Below are positions 6,458 through 58,668 of a stretch of 64,000 nucleotides of DNA, piece after piece. How positions within the stretch are numbered: position 1 is the first letter of the stretch; the number at the start of each line of letters is the position of its first letter. This stretch comes from a virus: positions 1 through 64,000 of IMG/VR virus record IMGVR_UViG_2716884767_000001; one strand, written 5' to 3'. Below the pieces are notes generated by a model, which made no database searches, had not been told where the DNA came from, and saw only the letters and a program-made list of their open reading frames with translations. A program made the translations under genes and the position numbers.

Positions 6458-6465
6458 TATAAATA
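6458..6465 (+). promoter_or_regulatory. T4-type late promoter TATAAATA (representative)
   Basis: Further TATAAATA, ATAAATA or CTAAATA copies upstream of genes at 21415, 30556, 35918, 39877, 42703, 44391, 45516, 48220, 48360, 49837, 55497 and 58150; gp55 sigma is in the window. Confidence 0.85.
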
Positions 6466-20700: not shown

Positions 20701-21396
20701 CCAGAAATTGGAGTTGGAATAGGAACCACTGCAACTGCAACTGCAACAGTATCAAATGGTCAAATAAATTCAATAACAATAACTAATACAGGTTTAGGAT
20801 ACACTATAGCACCTAAAGTTTTGATCAGCAGTCCAATACAATCAAATACCTTTGAAAACTTAACAACTTCAGGATTAACTATTTTGGAAAGCACTGGTTT
20901 GATTACAGGAATCGGAACAACAACATTATCAAACAAATTAGGATTAGAATTTTCAGTGAAAAAGGACAGTACTGCAAACTTTAATGCAATAACTGTTGGT
21001 GATCCAATTTATATTTTTAACACTACAATCGGATCAGGACTTATATCTATTAGTAATAGTGGTACAGATACTGATACTGTGGGTATTGGTACAACATTTG
21101 TAGATAATGTATATACCGTTGCATCATTTACAAGTAGTGCTAATACTGGAGTTGTTACTTGCCTAATAAAATCTAACACACCCACCACTGGATTAAGTGC
21201 CGTTGGATTTGCGACAGCACCAGTTGGAAACTATTCCATAGCAAAAATAAGTGGATTTACAAGATCATCATCACCTGTATCAATCGGAGTTACGGGATTA
21301 ACTATTGATGCTGGATTATCAACATTCCCAACACTTAAAAGGACTGGTGGTAACGATACATTCAATAAAACTGGTGGATTATTGACACCTTCTTAA
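11791..21396 (+). CDS. gp7: gp7-like giant baseplate protein, C-terminal part (frame open from about 11625)
   Basis: YHYH-like segment (IIGWAYDGNPIYG..GDLDEHNGRF), D.DYYQN.SYSI.S and many G.GY beta-repeats. The TTG start has no RBS, so it is probably one ~4200-aa gene with the previous ORF. Confidence 0.8.
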   Translation: MNQNNNYYVIKTDDNSFSLSNAGVGGTIISNYQREEIVTLNSVGSGSHIFKFPDIKVSVSIANTVGVGTTSLIATPKVRGSIKQLYLYEPGTGYGSTTVNNHKRPIITLKNGKNASLTPIIKNGAISEVTIQSGGGEYFSVPDLEVIDSTGKGVGGLLRPVISNQRITDVIIINSGIGYSTSSSINVKPAGKNALFNSSVRSLTINKGNNENGIKVTEHLEESENKLKYSFIGYSTSPFNDGGEKVSKIIGWAYDGNPIYGPFAYDNPENPPSNDIGRRRLESGYTLNTANIVDRPNFVGGFFVEDYIFTNAGDLDEHNGRFEITEDFPNGVYTYHATVDADNNPTFPYFIGNTYRSKKENFNFENNLQTNFDFTGNNLLRNTFPYKVADNFANNDFIVETNEIEDQKIEITSVSSGSVTGFEILSSGSDYKVDELLSFDLDNSDDLIASISKVKGQTITNLTSEIEKTEDSVLLWSDGKIKVVTPTSHTFNTNDVINISGLTTDLSSLNGSYKIGITTSASKTISAITSSPVAGFTTEIFVSSIPSSISVGSSIGIGTETLKILNIYDNLNILTVQRGTLAYGTVHNRGTQVNYLPDSFVFNKNISFFDSIVNKKVFFNPDQTVGLGTDDGTENTLSFSFAGSNVTRNVPTKQIHLENHPFKTNEKVIFTIPGGSPVIAISTDKDSPTFNLSTGDSLYIVNKTINTVGIKTGIGNNFNEVYFRNINSADSDLYSFETDFNQVKTTVSRVKTTVTTSSSHDLENNDSIDLLVKPKLSVGIGTSSHVRILRDTQTGNLLINPISFSNAGISTLTNTITIVDHGLKTGEKVKYNSNLLPEGLENQNYFVYKVDDDNIKLSKTFKDSKKLIPNIVGLGSTGGTSQSLSLINPQLISVKNNNLRFDLSDSSVSGYKLRFYYDQDYGNEFISSGISTTFDVVSVGNTTTIGFGSSLPEKLFYNLEKSGSISTTDTEVHNYSKIIFVDSDYNGTYNITGIGTTTFSLFLGNRPEKLSYNNVEATTTYKTNSKTAKGGIEAIKIISSGSNYKKIPDFVGVSGTSIGRGAAIIPTSNSIGIVQSVRVINEGFEYSSDKTLEPESLISSTIEIKNSSTLGIVSVTDGGSDYINSPDIVIIDSDSGAKIESGFIEPIMLENSILSVDIKELPKGLPVNPVTLRTINNTNGITILEVKSNAGSSYTCKLSTPDGLFSSNPFAANDRVFIEGIEKISGIGSGFNSKDYGFNLLKVTKFDANVGGFAEITIDVSEFGASNTGIAKTIVTTFANAINEADYPKFFVTQNQSLFDVNEPLIIGNRTSNLKILKTSNSKLKVFGTDTLNKGDVITAKNSGSQATVSKVIENKGRLKTDFSISKNIGWNDNIGKLSEDFQVIPDNDYYQNMSYSIQSPIEWRNLVTPVNNLLHSSGTKNFADTGITSTTNISIGSSDIVSVIVDLFDERRVDELRNIDTVTDDDVTDDNVTRKIVFDNIRLSNYISCDTNDVLVIDNINQEFSNLEGDPDDFLTLFQFGPQQVFKNLLIRVSSASGSLNRIQFSEFVLLSNDSNNVLLEKSRLINSGIGLTTTEESNFATFKLNEDNVTKIKSFRFEPTLDPNFDIDYDLKIFTSDFNTDNDGIGTQLVGPIFLNSRIQTCAANGTTLISVYNLSRSGIFYESNYSSIHAIDTVDNSMNYIEALVSNSGDDTFVAQAYADTGSNGLSLNQIGIVTSYIENIGSDPYMFVTFENNSSNPVKVKSKNIGFGTVGLSNDTYRFKSPNQSNGSERTSIYSGITSVNTGVSTFVSLNSQLFNTVKSVVEVSIGASKAVHEITALHDGTNAYVQSSGSLSVTKNSNTEYDPSSGLGTFSASYTASNFEIKFHPDDFVGVSTVVTFNHCFYTILDKVNDPLTLTYGPITEDNEVKEYNALEGTRVEKTEFNLNVNNIPIFVKSFNPSDDSVLNLSTGKFTISNHFFRENEELTYLPKSTFVGVGSTAMQYKNGSIVDVLPSTVFANTVTNDSFFISTTRSGTAVTFMSVGEGNAHKFEMKKSNEKSIISIDDVVQSPLINTNMSHLLENNVGSQVGLNTSIINLSGISTISVGDILKIDNEFLQVVNVGIATTNGSPVGTSGTFNVVEVERGFVGTSNSTHADGTTVQRFTGTYNIVESKLFLSDPPRGNPSRVKDDSNLDFPRSTFNGRVYLRNNYDSNLIYDDISDSFTGIKSTFTLKVGGANTIGVGTTGGSGILFINGIFQSPSTEFNPDKNFKIIESGSGATGVTSVVFSGITSDNGSQFISNDNVNFNELPRGGIPISFGSTVTGLGYAPLVGAKVKATTNASGQITNVVGVAYSGSALGIQTATYNEVTGIMTVKTVNEHKFKNSNEVVLLGGLEFACAAPHAGVTTTIFPDGTIGDKFPVVSIAATNVFGVNIGVSTIPHAYVGSGNAYPYFSNLTFGSGYNGLVSIGVTVEDFGYEHRFVSADVNGIDKNTGGDITATDAEYNPTTGVLVITSPNHGMSDDDLVLIKTGSIRFTCARDNFKTVHPYPRSTDPVAGINTVVDVLSPDVFSVDVGVNVGSGAQITATAGVGGTAIFTIAAAGSNYKDPEVFVSEPSYSNLSVTGVSRLGIGATTDTGTGLRVNAIVSASSTTGIGSTMFEISRYEIVNSGYGFKEGDVVEAVGLVTAKGMGSLQTRSTLSIDQVYKDRFAMWQFGEFDYIDSIKSLQNGTRTRFPLNFNNELISVEASNKLSESVDIENIFLVTINGVIQEPTKAYTINGGTSINFSVAPTGDSEVGKNDGDDVSILFYRGTSGEDSLIVEGDDSNIKTGDGVRIESGNQIPAQDTRTITGITTSTVLDTTVYRNQGISDTISRPLTLIKQKNDITVNKVVVSKKRSELEPRIIPIAKIIDDISTTDSVLFTDNADLFNYEDEGTVLITASITNLSNLNSVNAKATASVSSGEVTGITTITNGSGYTSAPTVKISAPPEIGVGIGTTATATATVSNGQINSITITNTGLGYTIAPKVLISSPIQSNTFENLTTSGLTILESTGLITGIGTTTLSNKLGLEFSVKKDSTANFNAITVGDPIYIFNTTIGSGLISISNSGTDTDTVGIGTTFVDNVYTVASFTSSANTGVVTCLIKSNTPTTGLSAVGFATAPVGNYSIAKISGFTRSSSPVSIGVTGLTIDAGLSTFPTLKRTGGNDTFNKTGGLLTPS

Positions 21397-23003: not shown

Positions 23004-26000
23004 ATGTCACAAAAAATTAATTTAAATTCAAGTCCATACTATGATGATTTTGATAGTCAGAAAAATTTTCATAGGGTTCTTTATAAACCTGGTTTTCCAG
23101 TACAAGCAAGGGAATTAACACAACAACAATCAGTATTACAGAATCAAATTGAAAAATTTGGTGATCATATATTCAAAGAAGGTTCAGTTGTAATACCAGG
23201 AGGAATAGGATATGACACTCAATATAACGCAGTAAAATTAAATAGCACTAATTTTAATATTGACATATCAGTATATATTGATAATTTTATTGGAAAGAGA
23301 ATAGTTGGATCAGAATCAGGAATAGAAGCAGTTGTAAAGTTCGTTTCTCTTCCAGATGGTGGTGATGTAGAAAATACAACTTTATATGTAACTTACTTAA
23401 GTGCCGATAACAATTCACAATATACTACTTTTGTGGATGGAGAAAAATTAAGTGCAACTGAATCTGTGGTATATGGTAATACTACAATTAATGCTAATAC
23501 TCCATTTGCATCACTAGTTTCTGAAGATGCAACTGCCATTGGATCTGCTGCATTTATTTCTGAGGGAGTATATTATGTAAGGGGATTTTTTGTTAATGTT
23601 TCTGATCAAACAATTATATTAGATCATTATTCAAATAATCCAAAATATAGAGTTGGATTGCAGATTAATGAATTAATTGTTGATGCAAAAGAGGATAATT
23701 CACTATTTGACAATGCGAAAGGATTTACTAATTTTGCAGCACCAGGTGCTGATAGACTTAGTATAGAATTAAAATTAACTAAAAAACTATTAACCGATAA
23801 AAATGATACTGATTTTATTGAATTATTAAGACTTGATGATGGTATATTAAAGGTAATACAACCAAAGAGTGAGTATAACAAAATTCGTGATTGGATTGCA
23901 GAAAGAACTTATGAAGAGTCTGGTGATTATAGTGTAAAACCATTTAAAATGAATGTATTCAATTCATTGAATGATAATTTGGGTAACGGGGGATTATTTT
24001 TTGAAGATGATATCACAGATCAAGAAAACACACCATCAGATGATTTAATGTGTTTAAAAATATCTTCAGGAGAAGCATATGTAAGAGGATATGATGTTGA
24101 AAAAGCAGGAACAACAATTATAGATGCTGATAAACCAAGAGATGTTGGAATTAGAAGTGATGTAGGTGTTGGTTTTGAGATGGGAAATATTTTAAAGTTG
24201 AATAATGTCACACAAGGTATTGCAGTTCAAGGAAGTATAGTAAAATTATTTGATAACTTTAGCTCTACTGGAACTAATATTGGTAGTGCACGAGTTTATG
24301 CATTTAATTTAGAAGATGCTGCTTATGAGGATGCATCTACAAGATGGGAACTAAGATTATTTGATGCTCAAACAAATACAGATTTAGTTTTAAATCAAGC
24401 AGTAAGTAATACTCAATTACCAAAAGGTTCATTTGTAAAGGGAAAAAGTAGTGGGGCAAGTGGATTTGCCGTTGATGCTGGTAGTGGTTTAGGAATTAAA
24501 TTAAATGAAACTTCAGGATCATTTAATGTTGGTGAACAGATACAAATAAATGGTGTTGATTTTCCAAGAACAATTGGAATCGCAACTGCATATACAGCAC
24601 AAGATATCAAATCTGTGGGTGACGGTGCCAAATTAAAGGCAGATGCCGTATTAGAGAGATTCAGACTGCCAAATAACATAGTCAATGTAGTTATTGATGG
24701 TGCCACTGTTACCGCACCAGGTAACGTATTTACAGGCATGAAGGTTGGATCTGTTGTTAGATATGCAAAACCAGGATTTACAACAGAAACTTATAACAAA
24801 GTTGCATCTGTTGGTGCTGGTGGAACTAATTTAACACTTCAAGCAATATCTTCAGGGGTTCCTGGTGTATATGAAGGTGCTCTTGCTGCTGGACAAATAG
24901 CAGTTCCAATGTTTATTGGTGCACCGTTTATAGAGGGAACAGGATCTTTATTCGTACCTTTACCAAACAGTAATATAGCAGATATTAATTTATCAGATTC
25001 TACATTAAAAATCACAAAACAAGTTTCTAAAGTTGCATCTGGTAATTCAGTAACAATTGCAGATAGTGATATTACAGATGTGTCTGATGTAATATTTGAA
25101 ACTTTTGATCAAGAAAAATATTCATTGTTTACCACATCTAGTGGTATTCCCACATCAATTACAAATGATTCGTTTTTATATGGAAGTAATCAAATTTCTG
25201 TGTTTGGTGTAACTAATAATAATAAGACATTAAACGTAACTCTTACTAAAACAAAAATTAGATCAAAATTAAAAAATTATAATCGAAGTCAAAAGATTAA
25301 TATAACTAGATCAAAAAATGCACAATCAGGTAGTGTTGCAGCAGGAAATGGTGGTTCAATTGCAGATGGACTTACTTTTGATGCCAGATATGGATTAAGA
25401 GTTCAAGATGAGGAAATATCTTTAAATTATCCAGATGTTGTTAAAGTTTTAGCAGTTTATGAATCTACAAATACATCTGCACCAGTATTGGATAAATTGA
25501 CTTTTACAGGCACTGTTGCCGTACATGATAATGCAATTATTGGTGAAAACATAATTAGTAAAGAGAATAATACCCTCGCAAGAGTTGTATCTTCTCCCAC
25601 CAATAATGTATTAGAAATAGTATACTTAACGTCTGGAAAATTTCAAACAGGTGAATTTGTTGAATTTAAAGAGTCAAACATAAAAACAAACATAGAATCA
25701 ATTACAATTGGAAAATATAAAAATGTAACGAATTCATTTACTTTAGATAAAGGACAAAAAGACCAGTATTATGATTATTCAAGACTTGTTCGTAATCGAA
25801 ATGTTTCTGAACCAAGTGCTCAATTATTAGTAGTATTTGACTATTATTCTGTTGCTTCTGATGATGGTGATGTTTTCACAGTGTTAAGCTATGATGAAGA
25901 AAGATTCTCAAAAGACATACCTAATATTGGATTTTCTAATATAAGAGCTACAGATACACTTGATTTTAGACCAAGAGTTTCAGTATATAATCCCTCTACT

Positions 26001-29000
26001 GATACAGGATCCCCATTTAATTTTACGTCAAGAGATTTTAGTGGAACTGCAGTTTCACGTTATATTACACCAAATGAAAGTTCTATAGTTGATTTTAATC
26101 ATTATCTACCAAGAACAGATAAAGTTTATCTTAACAAATTTGGTGAATTTATATACGAGAAGGGAATATCAAGTTTAGATCCAAAGGCACCAATTAAAAC
26201 TGGTGAATTGATGGAACTAGCAACAATTTCATTACCACCTTACTTATTTAATCCTCAAGATGCAATCTTGTCTTTTGTCGATAATCGAAGATTTACAATG
26301 AGAGATATTGGTGATATTGAAGATAGAGTTGCGAATTTAGAGGAAACCACTACCCTTTCTCTTTTAGAGGTTAGTGCTCAAACTTTACAAATTCAAGATG
26401 AAGAAGGTAGGAATAGATTCAAAAGTGGTTTGTTTGTAGATTCATTTAAAAATTACAATTTTATAGATGTTGATCAATCATTAATACAAATAAATCCTGA
26501 GTCACAAGAATTAATACCATTTAGAACTAGAGACACATTAGCTTCTCAAATAACACCATCGCAGAATACTATTAGTTCAGAGTTAGATTTTAATGAAGAT
26601 TTTCAATTATTTGATTCAAATGTTAAAAAAACGGGGAACGTAGTTACATTAAATTATGAAGAAGTTGAGTGGATTTCGCAACCATATGCAACAGAAATTA
26701 TAAATGTTAATCCTTATGAATTACCTACATTTTTTGGTGAAGTAGAATTAGATCCTGAAGATGATACATGGACAAGAACAGTACAACTTGATGATCGCAC
26801 TGTACAACAAACAGGAATTACTGAAAGAAGAAGAATAAATTTAGGTAATAATTTAGCACGAATAGGTAATGTAACTAGGGTTATAAAGGGTTTAGGAAAA
26901 CAAACTTTTACCTTTGGTCGAGTTCTAAGACAAACAATTACAACATCTAATACTGAAACTGAAATTCAAAATAATTTGGTTTCAACATCTGGTGATGATT
27001 TTATCAGATCTCGAAATATTCAATTTATATCAGAAGGATTTGTAGATTTTGTACAAACATATGTATTCTTTGATGGGCAAAAAATATTTGATGTAATTCC
27101 AAAATTACTTGAAATAACACCAACGAAAAATGGTTCTGTATCTGGATCAAATGGTGCATTTAAAATTGGAGAGGAGGTTCATGCTCTCAATGAAGAGGGT
27201 AATGTAATTATGAAATTTAGATTATGTCAACCAAACCATAAATCTGGAAAATATAATAGTCCATCAGAAACATATTTTAATAATCCTTATACTTTAGGTG
27301 TAACTGAAATATCTTCTAATTATAGTCAATCATCAACAGTTTTGAATGTTGATACAAAAGCATTGGCTGAGGAAGCACAGGGTAAATATTTTGGGTATGT
27401 TCAAAAAAATTCACAATTAGTTGGGCAGGAAAGTGGTGCCACTTCATATGTCAAAGATTTAAGATTAATTACTGATGCTTATGGTGATGTGCTTGGTTCC
27501 TGTTTTATTCGTGATCCACATAACCAACCAGCACCACCAGTTAAGATACAATCTGGTGTTAAAAATTTTAAAGTTACTACTAGTCCCACAAACCAAAATG
27601 TAGAACCAACACAAAAATTTGGTTTAGTTTATGGGGAAACTGAATATAGTGCTTTTGGTACAATTGAAGAATTTCAAAATACAGTTACAGTTACAACAAA
27701 TACTACGAACTTTGAAATTACAGGTCGAAGAAAAAGAAAGAAAAGAAAACCGCATAGTGATCCTCTCGCACAAACATTTATTGTAGGTGGTAATGTATTA
27801 GCACCGAGTGCGAGAGATGCAAATAAAGATTTAAATGGAGTTTTCATAACATCTGTTGAAGTTTATTTTGCAACAGTTGATACTGTAACAAATGCTCCAA
27901 TAAGATGTGAAATAAGGTCAACTATCGCAGATGCAAGACCATCAACCGAAGTTATCGGTAGAAGTAAAACTCTTAAACCAAAAGGTGTTGGTGCTGATGG
28001 AAATGAAATCACACTAATTGAAGCTGATCCAGATCAGGCAAGTAAATCCACCAAATTTACTTTCCCCGAACCAATTTATCTAGAGTCGGGCAAGTCATAT
28101 TCTTTCGTGTTAGTGGCACCAAGAAGTGTTGCTTACAATGTTTGGACAGGAAGACATGGTTCTATTGCTGTTAATCCATCCACAATTCAAGGAGCAGATC
28201 CTGGTTCTTCATTAATTTACTCAACACAGTATGGTGCAGGTGCTATATTTAAGTCACAAAATGGTGCTCTCTGGACAGAAGATCAGCATCAAGACATAAC
28301 CTTCAAGTTATATAAAGCTAAGTTCACATCACAATCAGGTTCAGTATCCTTTAATAATCCCGATTTGGATGAAAGCAATGGTTATGGAACTGGATTAATA
28401 AACAATCCTCTTTTCACTCTTTCAAAAACAGGATCAATTGGTATAACTACAAACCTAGATACAACCATTGGTAATAAACTTACAGCAGGTCGAAAAATTT
28501 GTGGAGGTCAAAACACAAGCACCGCAGTGATTACGGGTGTTGGAAGTTCTACACTAACTCTTAGTGTTACTAAGGGTGGAACTAATTACTCGACAACTCC
28601 TCCTGAAGACACTGATAGTGTTGATACATTTACCATCACTGGTAGGGGTTCTGGACTTAAATTAAATTTAGATACATCTAGTGGTTCAGTGGGTAGTGTA
28701 CAAAGTATAATAGAAGGAGGAAACGGGTATCAGGTTGGAGACGTTGTTGGTATTGTCACAAGTAGTGCTGGAAATCAAGGAAGTGGTGCAGAAATAACAA
28801 TCGCAAGTATTAATGGTATTGATACATTATTCTTGAATAATATTCAAGCGGATAATACTTCAAATGGATTCCAAAATGGCACTCAAATTAAGTATTTTGA
28901 TGATGATGGAACTGTTGTAGGAATGGCTGCTACAGGTGAAATTCGTCCTGATACTGTTGCATTTGATGGTGGATTACATGCAGGTAATGTAATGTTTGTT

Positions 29001-30353
29001 GATCAATTTAATCATGGAATGTACTCCACATCAAATAAAGTAAAATTAAGTGATATCGAGTCTGATGTAGAACCAACTGTGATAAACGCACAATTGAGTA
29101 AAACCGAAACATCAATTATCAGTGTTGCATCAACATCTCAATTTGCAAATTTTGAGGGAATAGCAGTAGGTGCTGCAAATACTGGATACGTCAAAGTAGG
29201 AAGTGAAATTATAGGATATGAATCTGTCGGAACAGGTGTATTAAATATTGGAAATGGACAAAGAGGTGTTGATGGGACAATTGTAATAGATCACACACCA
29301 AATTCTATAATTAAAAAGCATGAGATTTCTGGTGTATCTATAAGAAGATTAGAAACAACCGATGGAACAGGTCTTTCAGTAACAACTCCAATAAATCTTG
29401 ATGATTATCATGTAACATTTGATAGATCAACAAACGGAAAGGATAGATCTGTTGATACTGCAACTGCTCCTCAATTATCATTTACCAATGATGCATTTTT
29501 AGGTGGATCGCACGTAAAAGCAACTCAGAATATACTCTATAGTGCCATAGTTCCACGATATGATGTATTGACTCCTACTGGTGTCAATGGATCTGTGACA
29601 GGCATAGAAGCATCAATTAGAAGTGTTTCTGGTACAAGTGTAAGTGGAAATGAAACATCATTTGTGGATGAAGGATTTGAAAATGTTCAAATTAATAATA
29701 TTAACTCATTTGATAAAGTTAAGTTAGTTGCATCTAAGATAAACGAAAATCAATATTTAAGTAGTTTGCCATCAAACAAATCATTCACCACTATTCTTAA
29801 TCTATCTTCAAATGATGAGAATATATCTCCTATGATAAGATTAACTAGTGGTTCTGAAACTGAATTTATTAGTCATAGATTAAGTAGACCGATTAGTTTA
29901 GATGCTTATAATATGGATGGACGTGTTAATTCATTAACTAACGATCCTCACTATGCAATTTATGTTTCAAACACAGTTACATTGAAAAAACCAGCAACTT
30001 CAATAAAAGTTTTATTGAGTGCGTTTAGACCAGAGTCATCAGACTTTAGAGTTCTTTACAAATTAATTAGATCAGATTCAAGTGAAATCGAACAATCATT
30101 TGAATTATTTCCTGGTTTTAAGAATAGTACTAAAACAGATAATGATGGTTTTATTGTGACTGATGAATCTAAAAATGACGGTAGATCTGATGTAATAGTT
30201 ACACCAAGTGTGAATGACGAATTTAAAGAATATCAATTTACTGCAGATAATTTACCAGAATTTACAGGATTTTCAATTAAAATTGTAATGTCGGGAACGA
30301 ATCAAGCTCAACCACCTAGAATTAAAGAATTGAGGGCAATTGCTGTTAAGTAA
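23004..30353 (+). CDS. VrlC-like (DUF4815) large virion structural protein
   Basis: LN.SPYYDDFD..KNFHRVL.KPG.PVQARELT, APGADRL, RTYEESGDY, DPLAQTF and P.IKELRAIA. Confidence 0.9.
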   Translation: MSQKINLNSSPYYDDFDSQKNFHRVLYKPGFPVQARELTQQQSVLQNQIEKFGDHIFKEGSVVIPGGIGYDTQYNAVKLNSTNFNIDISVYIDNFIGKRIVGSESGIEAVVKFVSLPDGGDVENTTLYVTYLSADNNSQYTTFVDGEKLSATESVVYGNTTINANTPFASLVSEDATAIGSAAFISEGVYYVRGFFVNVSDQTIILDHYSNNPKYRVGLQINELIVDAKEDNSLFDNAKGFTNFAAPGADRLSIELKLTKKLLTDKNDTDFIELLRLDDGILKVIQPKSEYNKIRDWIAERTYEESGDYSVKPFKMNVFNSLNDNLGNGGLFFEDDITDQENTPSDDLMCLKISSGEAYVRGYDVEKAGTTIIDADKPRDVGIRSDVGVGFEMGNILKLNNVTQGIAVQGSIVKLFDNFSSTGTNIGSARVYAFNLEDAAYEDASTRWELRLFDAQTNTDLVLNQAVSNTQLPKGSFVKGKSSGASGFAVDAGSGLGIKLNETSGSFNVGEQIQINGVDFPRTIGIATAYTAQDIKSVGDGAKLKADAVLERFRLPNNIVNVVIDGATVTAPGNVFTGMKVGSVVRYAKPGFTTETYNKVASVGAGGTNLTLQAISSGVPGVYEGALAAGQIAVPMFIGAPFIEGTGSLFVPLPNSNIADINLSDSTLKITKQVSKVASGNSVTIADSDITDVSDVIFETFDQEKYSLFTTSSGIPTSITNDSFLYGSNQISVFGVTNNNKTLNVTLTKTKIRSKLKNYNRSQKINITRSKNAQSGSVAAGNGGSIADGLTFDARYGLRVQDEEISLNYPDVVKVLAVYESTNTSAPVLDKLTFTGTVAVHDNAIIGENIISKENNTLARVVSSPTNNVLEIVYLTSGKFQTGEFVEFKESNIKTNIESITIGKYKNVTNSFTLDKGQKDQYYDYSRLVRNRNVSEPSAQLLVVFDYYSVASDDGDVFTVLSYDEERFSKDIPNIGFSNIRATDTLDFRPRVSVYNPSTDTGSPFNFTSRDFSGTAVSRYITPNESSIVDFNHYLPRTDKVYLNKFGEFIYEKGISSLDPKAPIKTGELMELATISLPPYLFNPQDAILSFVDNRRFTMRDIGDIEDRVANLEETTTLSLLEVSAQTLQIQDEEGRNRFKSGLFVDSFKNYNFIDVDQSLIQINPESQELIPFRTRDTLASQITPSQNTISSELDFNEDFQLFDSNVKKTGNVVTLNYEEVEWISQPYATEIINVNPYELPTFFGEVELDPEDDTWTRTVQLDDRTVQQTGITERRRINLGNNLARIGNVTRVIKGLGKQTFTFGRVLRQTITTSNTETEIQNNLVSTSGDDFIRSRNIQFISEGFVDFVQTYVFFDGQKIFDVIPKLLEITPTKNGSVSGSNGAFKIGEEVHALNEEGNVIMKFRLCQPNHKSGKYNSPSETYFNNPYTLGVTEISSNYSQSSTVLNVDTKALAEEAQGKYFGYVQKNSQLVGQESGATSYVKDLRLITDAYGDVLGSCFIRDPHNQPAPPVKIQSGVKNFKVTTSPTNQNVEPTQKFGLVYGETEYSAFGTIEEFQNTVTVTTNTTNFEITGRRKRKKRKPHSDPLAQTFIVGGNVLAPSARDANKDLNGVFITSVEVYFATVDTVTNAPIRCEIRSTIADARPSTEVIGRSKTLKPKGVGADGNEITLIEADPDQASKSTKFTFPEPIYLESGKSYSFVLVAPRSVAYNVWTGRHGSIAVNPSTIQGADPGSSLIYSTQYGAGAIFKSQNGALWTEDQHQDITFKLYKAKFTSQSGSVSFNNPDLDESNGYGTGLINNPLFTLSKTGSIGITTNLDTTIGNKLTAGRKICGGQNTSTAVITGVGSSTLTLSVTKGGTNYSTTPPEDTDSVDTFTITGRGSGLKLNLDTSSGSVGSVQSIIEGGNGYQVGDVVGIVTSSAGNQGSGAEITIASINGIDTLFLNNIQADNTSNGFQNGTQIKYFDDDGTVVGMAATGEIRPDTVAFDGGLHAGNVMFVDQFNHGMYSTSNKVKLSDIESDVEPTVINAQLSKTETSIISVASTSQFANFEGIAVGAANTGYVKVGSEIIGYESVGTGVLNIGNGQRGVDGTIVIDHTPNSIIKKHEISGVSIRRLETTDGTGLSVTTPINLDDYHVTFDRSTNGKDRSVDTATAPQLSFTNDAFLGGSHVKATQNILYSAIVPRYDVLTPTGVNGSVTGIEASIRSVSGTSVSGNETSFVDEGFENVQINNINSFDKVKLVASKINENQYLSSLPSNKSFTTILNLSSNDENISPMIRLTSGSETEFISHRLSRPISLDAYNMDGRVNSLTNDPHYAIYVSNTVTLKKPATSIKVLLSAFRPESSDFRVLYKLIRSDSSEIEQSFELFPGFKNSTKTDNDGFIVTDESKNDGRSDVIVTPSVNDEFKEYQFTADNLPEFTGFSIKIVMSGTNQAQPPRIKELRAIAVK

Positions 30354-34713: not shown

Positions 34714-35510
34714 TGTTAGGAACTTATTACTATCATGAAATAATTCGAAAGACAATTGTTTCTTTTGGCACCTTGTTTAATGCTATTAGTATTCGACATG
34801 GTGATAAATCAGGTAGTACTTATAGTGAATTAAAAGTTCCTTTGGCATACGGACCTTCACAAAAATTCTTAGCAAGACTCGAACAACAAGCAGATTTGAA
34901 TAAACCAGTTGGAATTACTCTTCCTCGAATGTCTTTTGAAATGAATAATGTTTCATATGATTCATCGAGAAAAACTGGAATCACTCAAACATTTAAAGCA
35001 TCAGATGGTAATAATGTAAAAAAAGTTTTTATGCCCGTTCCATATAACATTGGATTTGAATTAAATATACTTGCAAAATTAAATGATGATGCTCTACAAA
35101 TTATTGAACAGATATTGCCATATTTTCAACCATCATTCAATCTTACAGTTGATTTAGTTAAATCTATTGGAGAAAAAAGAGATATACCAATTGTTTTAGA
35201 CAGTATTAATTTTCAAGATGATTATGAAGGAGATTTTTCAACACGTAGAGCATTAATATATACATTAGGATTTACGGCAAAGACCTATCTATTTGGTCCT
35301 GTTGCAGAGTCCTCTGAGGGTCTTATTAAGAAAGTTCAAGTTGACTATGCTGCTGATACTGATGTTCGAAATACAAAACGAGAAGTCAGATACACTGTAA
35401 CACCTGACCCCGTAGATGCTGGACCAGATGATGATTTTGGATTTAGTGAAACAACTTCATTCTTTTCTGATTCTAAATCTTATAGTTCTACAAGGCAAAC
35501 TGATATCTAA
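34713..35510 (+). CDS. gp15: Tail sheath stabilizer/terminator gp15
   Basis: IRKTIV.FGTLFN, VPLAYGP.QKFLARL, LPRMSFE and QIIEQILPYFQP. Confidence 0.95.
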   Translation: MLGTYYYHEIIRKTIVSFGTLFNAISIRHGDKSGSTYSELKVPLAYGPSQKFLARLEQQADLNKPVGITLPRMSFEMNNVSYDSSRKTGITQTFKASDGNNVKKVFMPVPYNIGFELNILAKLNDDALQIIEQILPYFQPSFNLTVDLVKSIGEKRDIPIVLDSINFQDDYEGDFSTRRALIYTLGFTAKTYLFGPVAESSEGLIKKVQVDYAADTDVRNTKREVRYTVTPDPVDAGPDDDFGFSETTSFFSDSKSYSSTRQTDI

Positions 35511-35962
35511 TGGATAATTTCAAATCTATTGACAAAGCTTTAAATATCAACTCTGAAGTTGTGCCTACACCTGAAGATGTTGTTGCTAAGAAGGGTCAAC
35601 TTAAAAAAGTTGAAAATCATGATGTTAGTAAAGATTATGATTATACAAGAGGTAATTTATATTCATTAATCGAAAAAGGACAGGAAGCAATTAATGGAAT
35701 TATGGAAGTTGCTGGTGAAACCGCAAGTCCAAGGGCATATGAAGTTGCAGGTCAATTAATAAAATCAGTGGCAGACACAACTGATAAATTAATGGATCTA
35801 CAGAAAAAAGTCAAAGAAGTAGAAGAAGATAGTAATAAAACTACAAATAATGTTACTAATAATGCTTTGTTTGTTGGATCAACATCAGAGTTATCAAAAA
35901 TGTTGAAACAAGGAATTCTAAATAATAAAGAGGAATCGAATCCTAAGAATGAAAAAGTGTAA
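35510..35962 (+). CDS. gp16: Terminase small subunit gp16
   Basis: DYDYTRGNLYSLIEKG, SPRAYEVAGQLIK and FVGST.EL. Confidence 0.93.
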   Translation: MDNFKSIDKALNINSEVVPTPEDVVAKKGQLKKVENHDVSKDYDYTRGNLYSLIEKGQEAINGIMEVAGETASPRAYEVAGQLIKSVADTTDKLMDLQKKVKEVEEDSNKTTNNVTNNALFVGSTSELSKMLKQGILNNKEESNPKNEKV

Positions 35963-37727
35963 ATCTGGATACTATTATTGCCAAACTGATAAGAAGTGTA
36001 AACCAATTCCTTCGGGATATCGTATTGGTTTTGGTGGATTTTTAAGACCTGAAAAAAGTAATGGAAAGTCTAATGGTAATGGTAACGGAAATGGTAATGG
36101 TAACGGAAATGGTAATGGTAATGGTGGTAATGGGAACGGTGGATCTAATGGAGGAGGAATGAGTGAAGGATCATTACATAAATGGTTTAAAGGTTCCAAA
36201 TCTAAAGATGGTAAAGGTGGTTGGGTCAACGTAGTCACAGGTGGAACTTGTGCAAGTGACGAACCTGGTGAAGGAACACCAAAATGTGTTTCATCTTCTA
36301 AGAGAGCAAGTATGACAAAGGCAGAAAGATTATCTGCTGCCCGTCGTAAGAAAAAAGCAGATCCTGGTCAACAATCAAAAACTGGTGCTGCAAAACCAAC
36401 TTATGTTTCAACTGACAAACCTAAAAAGAAAATGAAAGAAGAAATTCAAATTAATGAATCTGACAAAAAGGGTAAAGGTAGTGGATCTAAAGATGCCTGT
36501 TACCATAAAGTCAAATCAAGATATTCTGTGTGGCCAAGTGCTTATGCTTCAGGTGCATTAGTTAAGTGTCGTAAAGTCGGTGCTGCAAACTGGGGTAATA
36601 GTAGTAAGAAAGAAGAGTTTGAACCAACTGGTATTTCATTCCAACAGTTTTCAGAAAAATGTTGGAAGGGATATGAAAAGAAAGGCATGAAGACAATGTT
36701 TGGTAAGAGGTATCCAAACTGCGTAAAGAAGGAGCAAGTTGAAAGAGATGAGTATGGTGATCCGATGGGTGGACCAAAGATATCAGATAAACAGAAAAAG
36801 AAAAATTTAGCAAAGAACGAACCAGACAAGCAACATACTACAGATACTTCTGAAGGAATGGCATATGGAATCACTAGAGGATCAGGTAAACCATCAGGTC
36901 AAATGGCAGCATTTGGAAAAAAGAAAAAAGAAAATCCTTATTCTCTAAAGAATAAGTTAAAGATGGTGATTAAAAGTGTTGCCGAAAAAGAAAGAGCAAA
37001 GGCTGGTGTGACAAAAGAGGATGTCATACCAGAGGCAAAGTATGAAGCAGGTGCTTCAACTTATGGTAAAGCAACAATTAGAAATAAAAGAAAGTTTGGA
37101 ACATCTGGTGAAATGCCAGATATTATGACTGGAAAGAAGATCACAAAGGATGCGACAAGAGGTGAACTAATTACTAAAAGAAGAGAGGAACACAAAGCAA
37201 AACGTGGTGTGAAAGAAGAGGTTGGTGTTAGCACATCTACCATGAAAGATAATGCAAAGAAAGAGGCAATGCTTAGAAAGAAGGAGCAGGATGCCGTTGC
37301 TAAAAAGATGAAGAAAGAAGAAAGTGAATTACTTGTTCAAGATTGGAAAAAGGATAATATTAAATTTACTGAAATTCAGACAGTAGATATTATCAAACCA
37401 GAACCACTAAATCCTTCTGATTGGAGAAATGAACTCAGTGAAGATGATATGAAAGGTATGAGTGTTAAGTCGGGACATAAAAGACCTACAAAGAGTGGTG
37501 CAGGAATGACACAAAAAGGTGTTGAAGCATATCGTCGTAGAAATCCTGGTTCTAAATTAAAAACTGCAGTGACCACAGAACCATCTAAGTTAAAAAAGGG
37601 TTCGAAGGATGCGAATCGTAGAAAAAGTTATTGTGCTCGAAGTGCAGGTCAAATGAAGAAGTTTCCAAAGGCAGCAAAAGACCCAGATAGTAGATTAAGA
37701 CAAGCACGTCGTCGTTGGAATTGCTGA
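35949..37727 (+). CDS. Highly basic modular protein (592 aa); putative internal-head polyprotein
   Basis: K/R/G-rich mini-domains (WPSAYASGALVKCRK; C-terminal DUF6321-like YRR.NPGSKLKTAV..SYCARS..RW.C) separated by Glu-containing linkers; late promoter at 35918. Confidence 0.85.
   Translation: MKKCKSGYYYCQTDKKCKPIPSGYRIGFGGFLRPEKSNGKSNGNGNGNGNGNGNGNGNGGNGNGGSNGGGMSEGSLHKWFKGSKSKDGKGGWVNVVTGGTCASDEPGEGTPKCVSSSKRASMTKAERLSAARRKKKADPGQQSKTGAAKPTYVSTDKPKKKMKEEIQINESDKKGKGSGSKDACYHKVKSRYSVWPSAYASGALVKCRKVGAANWGNSSKKEEFEPTGISFQQFSEKCWKGYEKKGMKTMFGKRYPNCVKKEQVERDEYGDPMGGPKISDKQKKKNLAKNEPDKQHTTDTSEGMAYGITRGSGKPSGQMAAFGKKKKENPYSLKNKLKMVIKSVAEKERAKAGVTKEDVIPEAKYEAGASTYGKATIRNKRKFGTSGEMPDIMTGKKITKDATRGELITKRREEHKAKRGVKEEVGVSTSTMKDNAKKEAMLRKKEQDAVAKKMKKEESELLVQDWKKDNIKFTEIQTVDIIKPEPLNPSDWRNELSEDDMKGMSVKSGHKRPTKSGAGMTQKGVEAYRRRNPGSKLKTAVTTEPSKLKKGSKDANRRKSYCARSAGQMKKFPKAAKDPDSRLRQARRRWNC
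36072..36158 (+). repeat. (Asn-Gly)n coding minisatellite
   Basis: AATGGTAATGGTAACGGA twice plus further AATGGT units. Confidence 0.9.
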
Positions 37728-37733
37728 TAAGTT

Positions 37734-39380
37734 ATGGTTGATAATGTATATCTTGGTAATCCAAATTTAAAAAAAGCAAATACTCCTCACGAATTTACAG
37801 AGGAGCAGGTCATTGAGTTTATCAAATGTAAGAATGACCCAGTTTATTTTGCAAAAAATTATATTAAGATTGTTTCTCTTGATGAAGGACTAACTCAGTT
37901 TCATCCATATGACTTTCAAGAAAAATTAATTAAAAACTTCCATGAAAACCGTTTCAACATATGTAAGATGCCTCGACAGACGGGTAAATCTACTACATCT
38001 GTATCATATCTTTTACATTATGCTGTTTTTAATGATAGTACAAACATTGGTATCCTTGCAAACAAAGCAGCAACTGCCCGTGATTTATTAAGTAGATTGC
38101 AAACTGCATATGAGAATTTACCTAAATGGATGCAACAGGGTATTATATCTTGGAATAAAGGATCACTGGAGTTAGAAAATGGATCAAAAATACTGGCAGC
38201 ATCTACCTCTGCATCTGCAGTTCGAGGTATGTCTTTCAACGTTCTTTTTCTGGACGAGTTTGCCTTTGTTCCTAATCATATTGCTGACTCGTTCTTTGCC
38301 TCTGTATATCCTACTATCACTTCTGGTAAAAACACCAAAGTCATAATGGTTTCAACCCCTCACGGGATGAACCATTTTTATAGGTACTGGCATGATGCGG
38401 AAAGAGGTAGAAATCAATATGTTACAACAGATGTGCACTGGTCGGAAGTTCCTGGTAGAGATGATGTTTGGAAACAACAAACAATTGCCAACACATCAGA
38501 ACAACAATTTAAAGTTGAGTTTGAATGTGAATTTCTTGGATCAGTTAATACTTTAATAAATCCTGCCATATTAAAAAATATGGTATATGATTCTCCAATT
38601 ACAAAAAATGCAGGATTAGATATTTACGAAGAACCAATAAAAGAACATAATTATATTATTACAGTTGACGTAGCTCGTGGGTTAGGAAACGATTATTCTG
38701 CATTTATAGTTTTTGATGTCACGCAGTTCCCTTATAAAGTTGTAGGAAAATATCGAAACAATGAAGTCAAACCTATGCTGTTTCCAAATGTAATATTTGA
38801 TGTTGCAAAGGGATATAATAATGCATACTTATTAGTTGAAGTTAATGATATTGGTGATCAGGTTGCAAGTATTCTCCAATTTGATCTTGAGTATGAAAAT
38901 CTACTTATGGCATCAATGAGAGGGAGAGCAGGTCAAGTGGTTGGACAAGGATTTTCAGGAAAGAAGACACAATTAGGTGTTAGGACAACTGCAGCAGTTA
39001 AAAAATTAGGTTGTAGTAATCTTAAAACAATGATTGAAGATAATAAATTGTTAACATGTGATTATGAAATCATATCGGAATTGACTACATTTGCACAAAA
39101 ACATAATTCATTTGAAGCAGAGGAAGGATGTAATGATGATTTAGCAATGTGTTTAGTATTATTTGCATGGTTAGTTGCACAAGATTATTTTAAAGAAATG
39201 ACAGATAACGATATCCGAAAAAGATTATATGAAGAACAAAGAAATCAAATTGAACAGGACATGGCACCTTTTGGATTTATTAATGATGGTTTGGATAATG
39301 AGAGTTTTGTTGACAAAGATGGAGATTTATGGAAAATTGATGAATATGGAGACCGTTCATATATGTGGGATTATTACTAA
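37734..39380 (+). CDS. gp17: Terminase large subunit gp17
   Basis: YLGNPNLKK, Walker A PRQTGKST, Walker B LFLDEFAF, VDVARG and NDDLAM. Confidence 0.98.
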   Translation: MVDNVYLGNPNLKKANTPHEFTEEQVIEFIKCKNDPVYFAKNYIKIVSLDEGLTQFHPYDFQEKLIKNFHENRFNICKMPRQTGKSTTSVSYLLHYAVFNDSTNIGILANKAATARDLLSRLQTAYENLPKWMQQGIISWNKGSLELENGSKILAASTSASAVRGMSFNVLFLDEFAFVPNHIADSFFASVYPTITSGKNTKVIMVSTPHGMNHFYRYWHDAERGRNQYVTTDVHWSEVPGRDDVWKQQTIANTSEQQFKVEFECEFLGSVNTLINPAILKNMVYDSPITKNAGLDIYEEPIKEHNYIITVDVARGLGNDYSAFIVFDVTQFPYKVVGKYRNNEVKPMLFPNVIFDVAKGYNNAYLLVEVNDIGDQVASILQFDLEYENLLMASMRGRAGQVVGQGFSGKKTQLGVRTTAAVKKLGCSNLKTMIEDNKLLTCDYEIISELTTFAQKHNSFEAEEGCNDDLAMCLVLFAWLVAQDYFKEMTDNDIRKRLYEEQRNQIEQDMAPFGFINDGLDNESFVDKDGDLWKIDEYGDRSYMWDYY

Positions 39381-44860: not shown

Positions 44861-45511
44861 ATGAAACTAATCACAGAAGAAATTTCAAGCGTTAAATTTA
44901 TCACCGAAGGAAAGGGTGCTAAAAAGAAGATGTATATCGAAGGTGTATTCTTGCAAGGCGATATTAAAAATCGTAATGGTAGAATGTATCCAGTATCAAC
45001 TCTTGCAAAAGAAGTTGGTAGATATAATGAATCTTTTGTACAAAAAGGTCGTGCACTTGGTGAACTTGGACATCCAGATGGTCCGACTGTAAATCTAGAT
45101 CGTGTTTCTCATAAGATTACATCTCTTCGTCAAGAAGGAAATAATTTTATAGGTAAGGCACAACTTCTTGATACACCAATGGGTAAGATTGCAAAGTCAC
45201 TTATTGGTGAAGGTGTAACACTCGGAGTTTCCTCTCGTGGTGTTGGATCATTAAAAGAAGATCGTGATGGATGCAAAGTAGTTGGTGAAGATTTTATGTT
45301 AGCAACTGCTGCAGATATCGTTGCAGATCCTTCTGCTCCTGATGCATTTGTATCTGGAATTATGGAAGGAAAAGAGTGGGTTTGGGAAGGAGGAATTCTT
45401 CGTGAACAACAAGCAACAATCACTAAAAAGAGAATCAATACTCTTGTAGATCAAGGTAGATTGGAAGAGCACAAACTGAATTTATTCAGTGATTTCTTAT
45501 CAAATCTATAA
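44861..45511 (+). CDS. gp21: Prohead protease gp21
   Basis: MKLITE, KNRNGR.YP, ALGELGHP, GVSSRG.GSL and DIVADPSAPDAFV. Confidence 0.98.
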   Translation: MKLITEEISSVKFITEGKGAKKKMYIEGVFLQGDIKNRNGRMYPVSTLAKEVGRYNESFVQKGRALGELGHPDGPTVNLDRVSHKITSLRQEGNNFIGKAQLLDTPMGKIAKSLIGEGVTLGVSSRGVGSLKEDRDGCKVVGEDFMLATAADIVADPSAPDAFVSGIMEGKEWVWEGGILREQQATITKKRINTLVDQGRLEEHKLNLFSDFLSNL

Positions 45512-46735: not shown

Positions 46736-48166
46736 ATGCAAGCTCCTATTAATCACGAGCATCTGCAGAAGAAGTGGGCACCATTACTTGATTACGATGG
46801 ACTAGATCCAATCAAGGATAATCATAAGAGAATGGTTACCGCACAACTTTTGGAGAACCAAGAGACAGCAATTAGAGAAGAAAGAGAGTTTCTTTCAGAA
46901 GCTGTGCCAACAAACAGCACAGGTTCATCAGGTGCAACAGCAGGTTTCTCTGCTGGAGCAAACGCACCAGTAGCAGGTTTCGACCCTGTTCTAATCAGTT
47001 TAATCCGTCGTTCAATGCCTAACTTGGTCGCATATGACCTAGCTGGTGTTCAACCAATGACTGGACCTACTGGTTTAATTTTCGCAATGAGATCTAAGTT
47101 CAGCGGACAGTCTGGACCAGAAGCACTATTCGATGAAGCAGACACAGCGTTCTCTGCAGTTAGTGCAAGTGGTACTGCAGGAGACGTTGGTAGTGGATAT
47201 GTATCAGGATCTGACGGAGTGGCCGTTGGTTTCGGTACAACAGGTGGATCAAGTCAAGGTACAAATCCAGGCGCACTTAACCCTAATGCAGGTCAAGATG
47301 CTACTCAGTTTGCTTACAGAACTGGTCAAGGTATGGATACTGAGAACTCTGAAGCACTTGGCACAGATAGCTCACCAGCTTTCAACGAAATGGCATTCTC
47401 AATCGAGAAGGTCACCGTTACTGCGAAGTCCAGAGCACTAAAGGCAGAGTACAGTTTAGAACTTGCTCAAGACCTTAAGGCAATTCACGGTCTAAATGCT
47501 GAAGCAGAATTAGCAAATATTCTTTCAACAGAAATACTTGCTGAAATCAACAGAGAAGTTATTAGAACTATCTACAAAACTGCTGAAACTGGTGCTGCTG
47601 TTAACACTGCACAAACAGGTGTATTTGATCTTGATATCGACTCAAACGGTAGATGGTCAGTTGAGAAGTTCAAAGGACTTATCTTCCAGATCGAAAGAGA
47701 TGCAAACAGAATCGCACAGAGAACTCGTAGAGGAAAGGGTAACATGATCCTTTGTTCTGCTGACGTTGCTTCTGCATTAACAATGGCTGGTGTACTTGAC
47801 TACACTCCTGCACTTAATGCAAATCTTAACGTTGATGACACAGGTAATACATTTGCTGGTGTTCTTCAAGGTAAGTACAGAGTATACATCGACCCATTCT
47901 CTGCAAACAGTGCTACAAATCAGTACTATGTTGTAGGATACAAAGGTACATCACCTTATGATGCAGGACTGTTCTATTGCCCATACGTACCACTACAGAT
48001 GGTTCGTGCTGTGGGAGAGAACTCCTTCCAGCCAAAAATTGGCTTTAAGACCAGATATGGTATCGTTGCAAACCCATTTGCTCAAGGTACTACTGCAGGT
48101 CTTGGAAAACTTGTTAAAAACTCTAACAGATACTATCAGAGAGTTACAGTTAACAACCTTATGTAA
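46736..48166 (+). CDS. gp23: Major capsid protein gp23
   Basis: LIRRSMPNL.AYD..GVQPMTGPTGLIFAMR, AKSRALKAEYS.ELAQDLKAIHG and YCPYVPLQM. Confidence 0.99.
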   Translation: MQAPINHEHLQKKWAPLLDYDGLDPIKDNHKRMVTAQLLENQETAIREEREFLSEAVPTNSTGSSGATAGFSAGANAPVAGFDPVLISLIRRSMPNLVAYDLAGVQPMTGPTGLIFAMRSKFSGQSGPEALFDEADTAFSAVSASGTAGDVGSGYVSGSDGVAVGFGTTGGSSQGTNPGALNPNAGQDATQFAYRTGQGMDTENSEALGTDSSPAFNEMAFSIEKVTVTAKSRALKAEYSLELAQDLKAIHGLNAEAELANILSTEILAEINREVIRTIYKTAETGAAVNTAQTGVFDLDIDSNGRWSVEKFKGLIFQIERDANRIAQRTRRGKGNMILCSADVASALTMAGVLDYTPALNANLNVDDTGNTFAGVLQGKYRVYIDPFSANSATNQYYVVGYKGTSPYDAGLFYCPYVPLQMVRAVGENSFQPKIGFKTRYGIVANPFAQGTTAGLGKLVKNSNRYYQRVTVNNLM

Positions 48167-48378: not shown

Positions 48379-48627
48379 ATGAAACATTTTCGCAAATTCA
48401 TGGAGGAAATTGACTCCACTGAAAAATCAGTGGATAACAGAGCTGATGCTGCAAAAAAGAAATTTGAAATTCAAAAAATGAAAACAAAAAGTGAACTTGA
48501 ATCAACTAGAGAAAAAATAAAAGATTCAGGAAAAAGATCTACATCAATGTTTAACAAACATAAATCAGTTAAATTAAATAAAAGCACAGGTCAACTACCA
48601 AGTTTTAATAAAAAGGAGGAAAAATAA
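48379..48627 (+). CDS. Basic protein with CTS-like N-terminus; putative internal head protein
   Basis: MKHFRKFMEE resembles the T4 CTS MKTYQEFIAE; CTAAATA at 48360. Confidence 0.65.
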   Translation: MKHFRKFMEEIDSTEKSVDNRADAAKKKFEIQKMKTKSELESTREKIKDSGKRSTSMFNKHKSVKLNKSTGQLPSFNKKEEK

Positions 48628-58176: not shown

Positions 58177-58668
58177 ATGAAGACCTATAAAGAATTCATG
58201 CAAGAGAGTAGTCTCTCTCGAATCAAAAGTAAATCTGATAAGGGTGGTATTGCTACAATGTCCGCATCCAGAGCAGATAAGTCTGCAAAGGAAAATCGTG
58301 CAAGGGCAAAACAATTAGACCGAGATATTCGTGGTAGAGGATTAGGTGGTGCTACAAAGGTAACTGGTTCATATGTTGAGAAAGATGATAAGACTGGTAA
58401 AGAGAAGAAAGTAAAGGAGAGGAGTCATGTAGTCTCCTCTGGTAAGATGGGTAAGAGAAAGTTTAAGAAAACAGTCAAGGCACTTGGTAAAAAGTACGGA
58501 CAAGATTCTGTGTTGACACAAACGAAAAAAACTGGTACACTATCAGCAACAAGAAAAGGTGGACTTGGCAAATCAAAAAATATAAAACTAGGAAAATTTA
58601 AACCACAGGGTAAAAACCCAGAGGGTCAATCTCAAATCAAAGGCAAAACTTTCACATACGGAAAATGA
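58177..58668 (+). CDS. Basic protein with capsid-targeting sequence; putative internal head protein (163 aa)
   Basis: Begins MKTYKEFMQE (T4 CTS: MKTYQEFIAE); CTAAATA at 58150; LG.KY.QDSVL motif. Confidence 0.8.
   Translation: MKTYKEFMQESSLSRIKSKSDKGGIATMSASRADKSAKENRARAKQLDRDIRGRGLGGATKVTGSYVEKDDKTGKEKKVKERSHVVSSGKMGKRKFKKTVKALGKKYGQDSVLTQTKKTGTLSATRKGGLGKSKNIKLGKFKPQGKNPEGQSQIKGKTFTYGK

Follow-up and report, generated by a model that had tools for sequence, protein, structure and literature searches.

The 64,000-nucleotide (nt) stretch of IMG/VR record IMGVR_UViG_2716884767_000001 analysed here (the window) is part of the 210-kb genome of a T4-like cyanomyovirus, and between the terminase genes terS and terL it carries an open reading frame (ORF) for a lysine-rich, modular protein of 592 amino acids (aa). 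Our preferred reading, which we hold with somewhat better than even confidence, is that gp21 cuts this protein as a precursor of head cargo, in a fused-array version of the phage T4 internal-protein system. The shuffled modules of the protein each follow a T4-type protease signal, and its loading into the capsid and chopping into small basic peptides are therefore probable. A preliminary description of the DNA had proposed a protease-processed polyprotein of this kind; the comparison of relatives reported here and the presence of homologues in virions speak in part for that proposal, while two of the seven cut sites that it listed had to be corrected. The gene, its modularity, the conservation of the motif, the protease gene and the virion presence of homologues are established.

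Modules and their joints

The protein is rich in lysine and arginine (17.4% and 5.4%) and has a net charge of +68. Its 11 cysteines fall into groups at residues 4/11/17, 101/113, 184/207, 238/258 and 562/592; Cys pairs in several modules had been noticed before. The PHROG families matched, and the profile positions at which they match, vary from stretch to stretch of the chain (families 727, 3477, 12753, 38880, 10346, 4689 and others). The sole Pfam match is to DUF6321 (PF19846) at residues 518-590, with 43.8 bits against a gathering cut-off of 28.5; a Pfam scan of the separate pieces gave just sub-threshold hints of DUF4215 and DUF5872, and in the ESM Atlas the matches were confined to hypothetical clusters of viruses that bear DUF6321 or DUF5872. 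Among relatives at 67-90% identity whole blocks are inserted, deleted or replaced; shorter complete genes on long contigs hold two to four of the blocks, recombined differently, and in P-SSM4 the blocks are distributed over four adjacent ORFs. The AlphaFold model of the whole protein is mostly disordered (mean predicted local distance difference test score, pLDDT, of 51), with confident islands at residues 1-35 (beta-hairpins), in helices at 333-351 and about 440-460, and in the DUF6321 helices at 550-592. A second run on residues 74-262 gave a mean pLDDT of 50 and a confident hairpin flanked by Cys 238/258. Judged by these models, 'beads on a string' fairly describes the protein. The modularity described originally is borne out by the PHROG matches and block swaps, but the models, mostly disordered with few small confident islands, do not show eight folded mini-domains.

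The preliminary description had named, as support for its reading, modules that occur as stand-alone genes or shuffled in relatives, with boundaries at x-x-E sites; both occur, and the boundaries carry a conserved hydrophobic-x-Glu motif. We set seven module starts by short anchors and gathered the preceding residues from 241 family proteins. Among the resulting 75 linker types, which differ at four or more of six other positions, Glu stands at P1 in 64, compared with a family frequency of 7%, and I, L, V, M or F stands at P3 in 58, compared with 15% (binomial p ~1e-32, the independence of the types being approximate). Most of the exceptional linkers still have the motif two or three residues upstream. 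One recurrent linker, K-K-M-K-E... followed by [DN]-W-R and then by hydrophobic-x-E, is found before at least eight different modules. Across distinct DNA contexts the codons at the joints vary freely (GAA and GAG at P1 in about the gene-wide ratio, at least eight codons within the hydrophobic class at P3, and P2 free), and selection therefore acts on the peptide and not on the DNA spelling. On this codon variation we reject recombination joints 'same-spelled' at the DNA level.

The 592-aa protein itself holds nine [ILVMF]-x-E motifs, eight of which (E73, E164, E170, E236, E362, E423, E475 and E498) lie in segments with pLDDT below 50. All seven Glu sites listed in the preliminary description are where it placed them, and five fit the motif as written. 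The site DTSE302↓G (the arrow marks the supposed cut) has Thr at P3, which puts it outside the motif, and looks like part of a module; GVKEE↓VG is there and is better read as V-K-E423↓E.

Protease, capsid-targeting-like leaders and virion presence of homologues

A gp21-type prohead protease, gp22 and gp23 are all present in the same genome. In an alignment to T4 gp21 (PDB 5JBL), two Ala of the crystallised chain face a His and a Ser in the gp21 of the window, at positions that we take to be those of the catalytic His85 and Ser140. The stretch FLSE↓AVPT, suggested earlier as the maturation cut of gp23, agrees with the alignment, in which F-L-S-E54↓A55 corresponds to F-L-T-E65↓A66 of T4 gp23; in the PDB, the mature T4 chain has 65 residues fewer. 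The T4 protease cuts after Glu in L/I-X-E, and the T4 internal proteins carry a capsid-targeting sequence (CTS), MKTYQEFIAE, with a single cut after it. Within this sequence targeting depends on residues 4 and 7 and processing on residues 8 and 10, and the CTS alone is common to the diverse set of T-even internal proteins (PMC9026906, PMC8442874, PMC3012670).

A scan of the whole genome with the CTS template (aromatic at 4 and 7, hydrophobic at 8, Glu at 10) found it at three of 451 first-ATG ORFs, one with the leader MKTYKEFMQE, compared with none of 913 internal Met residues. The first ten residues of a 163-aa ORF of the SAM-lyase family are identical to the T4 CTS at seven of ten positions, and its product may, to judge by its sequence, be a capsid-loaded, injected anti-restriction enzyme. 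We presume that it belongs to the same cargo system as the 592-aa protein, together with an 82-aa ORF beside gp23 for which no PHROG or Pfam family was matched. The same template is borne by PSSM4_155, PSSM4_158 and SSCSM1_30, and PSSM4_155 is annotated as T4-GC 190, a cluster present in S-SM1 virions according to Sullivan et al. 2010 (PMC3037559). The third of the ORFs with the template, a cytidylyltransferase-like one elsewhere in the genome, is provisionally linked to PSSM4_155 by a common Pfam family, leader and neighbouring genes. Within the family of the 592-aa protein, some members have a nine- or ten-residue CTS-type leader directly before module A, and one such N-terminal leader is nearly identical to the internal ISFQQFSE of the 592-aa protein. 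The likeness of ISFQQFSE to a capsid-targeting sequence, remarked on before, is thereby borne out: it resembles the T4 CTS and is homologous to the N-terminal leader of a family member.

The DUF6321 module offers a comparison across lineages. A HMMER search with this module among 1.8 billion representatives returned 2663 proteins, including many stand-alone genes of 93-104 aa in which a perfect CTS-like leader is followed at once by the domain. Five contigs with such leader-bearing genes are 13-50% complete by CheckV, which corresponds to genomes of about 165-185 kb, and one of them encodes a gp23 71% identical to that of the window. Leaderless stand-alone genes, and module fusions that lack Glu joints, were found in loci without T4 markers (0/80). 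One such contig has terminal repeats and is a genome complete at 65.8 kb; it encodes no T4-like gp23. Since leaderless and linker-less forms exist in such loci, the modules themselves need no Glu, and on this limited sample of small, partial contexts leader and joint appear to accompany T4-like genomes. Stand-alone DUF6321 proteins of small marine phages and podophages (for example Pelagibacter phage Skadi-4 gene 27 and phage C75C1 CDS0042) share 67-74% identity with the C-terminal 94 residues of the 592-aa protein. These are single genes of 70-94 aa, in small genomes, with no leader or Glu joint, whereas in the 592-aa protein DUF6321 forms the end bead of a chain and has L-S-E in front of it.

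Relatives of the 592-aa protein were found by tblastn in 415 phage records, mostly of Synechococcus and Prochlorococcus myoviruses with some Pelagibacter, Roseobacter and Methylophilales phages, and a large protein collection gave about 8000 scored matches in each of two length classes. The tblastn matches include PSSM4_160 (annotated T4-GC 119) and SSCSM1_29, the shared modules being A, B and DUF6321. T4-GC119 is reported, from 13 peptide counts, as a structural protein of S-SM1 virions (Sullivan et al. 2010; PMC3037559), and S-SCSM1 ORF29 (SSCSM1_29) as a virion protein by mass spectrometry (PMC9602691); both are tryptic identifications, which carry no size or terminus information. The two proteins belong to the same family as the 592-aa protein, whose gene lies in the terS-terL (gp16-gp17) interval that Sullivan et al. 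2010 (PMC3037559) named a hypervariable hot spot. The two papers list the virion detection and suggest neither processing nor a targeting signal nor a modular make-up. So far all that is known of the family is that it is a virion protein of hypothetical status, and in the literature on CTS in cyanophages, on DUF6321 and on cyanophage internal head proteins we found no paper that reads it as T4-type head cargo. The order terS, family gene, terL is seen in 72 of 80 related IMG/VR loci, as far as the contigs reach, and in four of the 80 the family gene adjoins a cytidylyltransferase-like gene. In S-SCSM1, ORF30 (locus L001 5548-5868; 106 aa) lies between the homologue and terL and has a near-perfect CTS-like leader, and the terS-terL interval therefore appears to harbour internal-protein genes beyond the present phage as well.

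Proposed processing and alternatives

We infer the targeting and packaging of the 592-aa protein, its cutting, and the fate and function of the pieces, in DNA condensation or as effectors, as follows. The precursor would enter the prohead core, where the gp21-type protease would cut after the Glu of hydrophobic-x-Glu motifs in disordered linkers. Cuts at the eight sites in disordered segments would release seven basic pieces of 52-126 residues, with net charges of +2 to +21, and two short acidic spacers. The spacers would be lost from the head, whereas the basic pieces would remain with the DNA and probably reach the host with it, like the T4 internal proteins. As the most likely origin of the array we see stand-alone genes of the internal-protein kind, each with a capsid-targeting leader, that were fused in frame; the array evolves by exchange of whole modules.

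Several points weigh against this proposal. No cleavage has been measured in any family member. The N-terminus of the 592-aa protein has no CTS (aromatic 4 and 7, hydrophobic 8, Glu 10) and holds a Cys-rich module instead, and we know of no evidence that an internal CTS functions. Strict [IL]-x-E motifs number three in the protein, compared with about 2.3 expected, which is chance level. Across the family, Glu at +2 from a hydrophobic residue is enriched 1.5-fold, and the offsets -1 and -2 are similar (1.4-1.5-fold), so that this enrichment is weak and unspecific; on these sequences, the joint signal lies in conservation across relatives and not in motif count. The anchors that defined the joints were picked after the data had been viewed, and the conserved joint Glu could instead be part of the modules or of a binding motif. 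Finally, the T4-like context of the leader-bearing stand-alone genes consists of one gp23 match and the CheckV size estimates.

The main rival is an uncleaved, disordered, lysine-rich virion protein that is packaged whole, for example to neutralise the charge of DNA, with the joints as scaffold or core binding motifs or as module caps. We consider this unlikely, and the other alternatives are less likely still. It would fit the mostly disordered models, the virion detection of homologues is silent on size, and in the T4 CTS an Asp at position 10 stops processing yet permits targeting, which makes the two functions separable. However, the joint motif fits the processing positions (hydrophobic P3, Glu P1) and not the targeting positions, it occurs up to nine times per chain before unrelated modules, and linker-less fusions occur where no T4 markers were found.

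Improbable, in our view, is that the joints are relics of the leaders of fused genes, or recombination aids for module exchange, with no present proteolytic role. Frequent module exchange and the known hypervariability of the terS-terL spot agree with such an origin, but relics would be expected to decay, yet the motif is kept in 58-64 of the 75 unrelated linkers, and the P3, P2 and P1 codons are free while the residue class is kept. Very improbable is nested translation, in which conserved linker Met codons (of the K-K-M-K-E-E type) would initiate shorter proteins with their own leaders: Met162 is at least 90% conserved and several database proteins begin at such a Met, though many of these are contig-end artefacts, but Met equally suits P3 of an M-K-E site and most joints have no Met. 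We give least credence of all to a cytoplasmic, DNA-binding packaging accessory that is no head component; its strong basicity and the position between terS and terL, kept in 72 of the 80 loci, would be accounted for, but homologues are present in purified virions, and in P-SSM4 and four loci the family sits elsewhere, beside a leader-bearing cytidylyltransferase-like gene.

If the 592-aa protein is a precursor cut by gp21, its pieces would resemble the T4 internal proteins as small, basic, highly variable head cargo cut after hydrophobic-x-Glu, in a genome that also has the T4 leader template and gp21, gp22 and gp23. The T4 proteins are encoded by separate genes and are each cut once, whereas here the candidate units are fused in a chain with internal sites, which lies between terS and terL and has no N-terminal CTS. 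We found no sequence homology to IPI, IPII or IPIII, the Pfam and PHROG scans giving only DUF6321 and PHROG families of unknown function. The giant phages phiKZ, 201phi2-1 and SPN3US likewise have ejected internal proteins and head proteins in which gp21-like proteases cut after Glu at short motifs, in many cases at several redundant sites; their cuts, however, follow another motif in unrelated proteins and remove propeptides rather than divide an array of cargo modules.

Cyanomyoviruses are among the most abundant marine viruses, and their purified particles repeatedly hold unexplained hypothetical proteins and enzymes. If T4 targeting and cutting are conserved and have been extended to fused arrays, this particle content would be accounted for, and a role would be found for a very large unannotated marine protein family, with more than 8000 scored matches in one search. 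One could then read the hypervariable terS-terL interval as an internal-protein locus and name candidates for injected effectors in the conflict between phages and their Prochlorococcus and Synechococcus hosts, and a polyprotein strategy would be seen in a tailed phage. More tentatively, and at rather less than even odds, T4-like cyanophages may use a 'cargo code' in which the leader loads SAM-lyase-like and nucleotidyltransferase-like enzymes and small basic proteins, and the joints yield swappable injected basic peptides; one could then predict from sequence which proteins the most abundant myoviruses of the ocean inject.

Locus, putative late promoters and other features

The gene order around the ORF is gp13, gp14, gp15, terS (35510-35962), the 592-aa ORF, terL (37734-39380), gp18, gp19, gp20, gp21 (44861-45511), gp22 and gp23 (46736-48166). 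The ORF shares its first 14 nt with terS, and 6 nt separate its end from terL. Its features, and the other genes discussed, are collected in Table 1.

Table 1. Coordinates of the 592-aa ORF, its modules and candidate cut sites, and associated genes (window positions unless stated; arrows mark candidate or equivalent cuts).
Feature	Coordinates	Strand	Remarks
CTAAATA late-promoter-like motif	35918..35924	+	within terS 3' end, 31 nt 5' of ATG
592-aa ORF, lysine-rich modular protein, candidate head-cargo polyprotein	35949..37727	+	ATG start
N-terminal three-Cys beta-hairpin module, residues 1-35	35949..36053	+	pLDDT ~80
Asn-Gly repeat linker, residues 36-70	36054..36158	+	in-frame length variation among relatives
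Candidate cut site M-S-E73↓G before module A	36159..36167	+	many relatives' proteins begin here
Module A, residues 74-164, Cys 101/113	36168..36440	+	
Linker with candidate sites M-K-E164↓E and I-N-E170↓S	36432..36458	+	E170 invariant in 64 relatives
Module B, residues 171-228, Cys 184/207	36459..36632	+	weak DUF5872 likeness
Internal capsid-targeting-like ISFQQFSE, residues 229-236	36633..36656	+	ends in candidate site F-S-E236↓K
Module C, beta-hairpin flanked by Cys 238/258, residues 237-262	36657..36734	+	
Middle modules, residues 263-362	36735..37034	+	end in candidate site I-P-E362↓A
Replaceable module, residues 363-423	37035..37217	+	ends in candidate site V-K-E423↓E
Helical module and acidic spacer, residues 424-498	37218..37442	+	candidate sites F-T-E475↓I and L-S-E498↓D
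C-terminal DUF6321 module, residues 499-592, Cys 562/592	37443..37724	+	net charge +21
gp21 prohead protease homologue, presumed processing enzyme	44861..45511	+	PHROG head maturation protease E 8.5e-84; PDB 5JBL E 5e-24
gp23 maturation site L-S-E54↓A, equivalent of T4 L-T-E65↓A	46889..46897	+	
82-aa basic Lys-rich ORF with T4-CTS-like leader (aromatic 4, 7; Met 8; Glu 10), right after gp23	48379..48627	+	CTAAATA 19 nt upstream
163-aa very basic SAM-lyase-family ORF	58177..58668	+	Pfam PF23780 E 3.5e-19; CTAAATA 27 nt upstream
Cytidylyltransferase-like ORF with CTS-like leader	genome 82419-83618, outside window		Pfam match

The ORF had been described as driven by a late promoter, and the motif CTAAATA, which we take to be a cyanophage variant of the T4 late promoter, does lie just upstream of it. 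On the + strand of the window, five of seven copies of CTAAATA stand within 80 nt upstream of gene starts, where 0.4 would be expected, and this placement is compatible with a late-type promoter. The copies at 35918, 39877, 48360, 49837 and 58150 are 19-41 nt 5' of five gene starts. Other genes are preceded by TATAAATA and ATAAATA, for example at 6458, 21415 and 45516, and this phage may have two spellings of the late promoter.

A second cargo-like locus lies at genome 82419-86309 (L086 2420-6310), where two basic modular ORFs, of 618 aa and 284 aa, come after the cytidylyltransferase-like gene. Both ORFs have modules in common with relatives of the 592-aa protein, and the layout is as in PSSM4_155-160. 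Upstream of the neck genes, the + strand of the window also holds two giant ORFs, at 11791-21396 (3201 aa) and 23004-30353 (2449 aa), which presumably encode fibre proteins.

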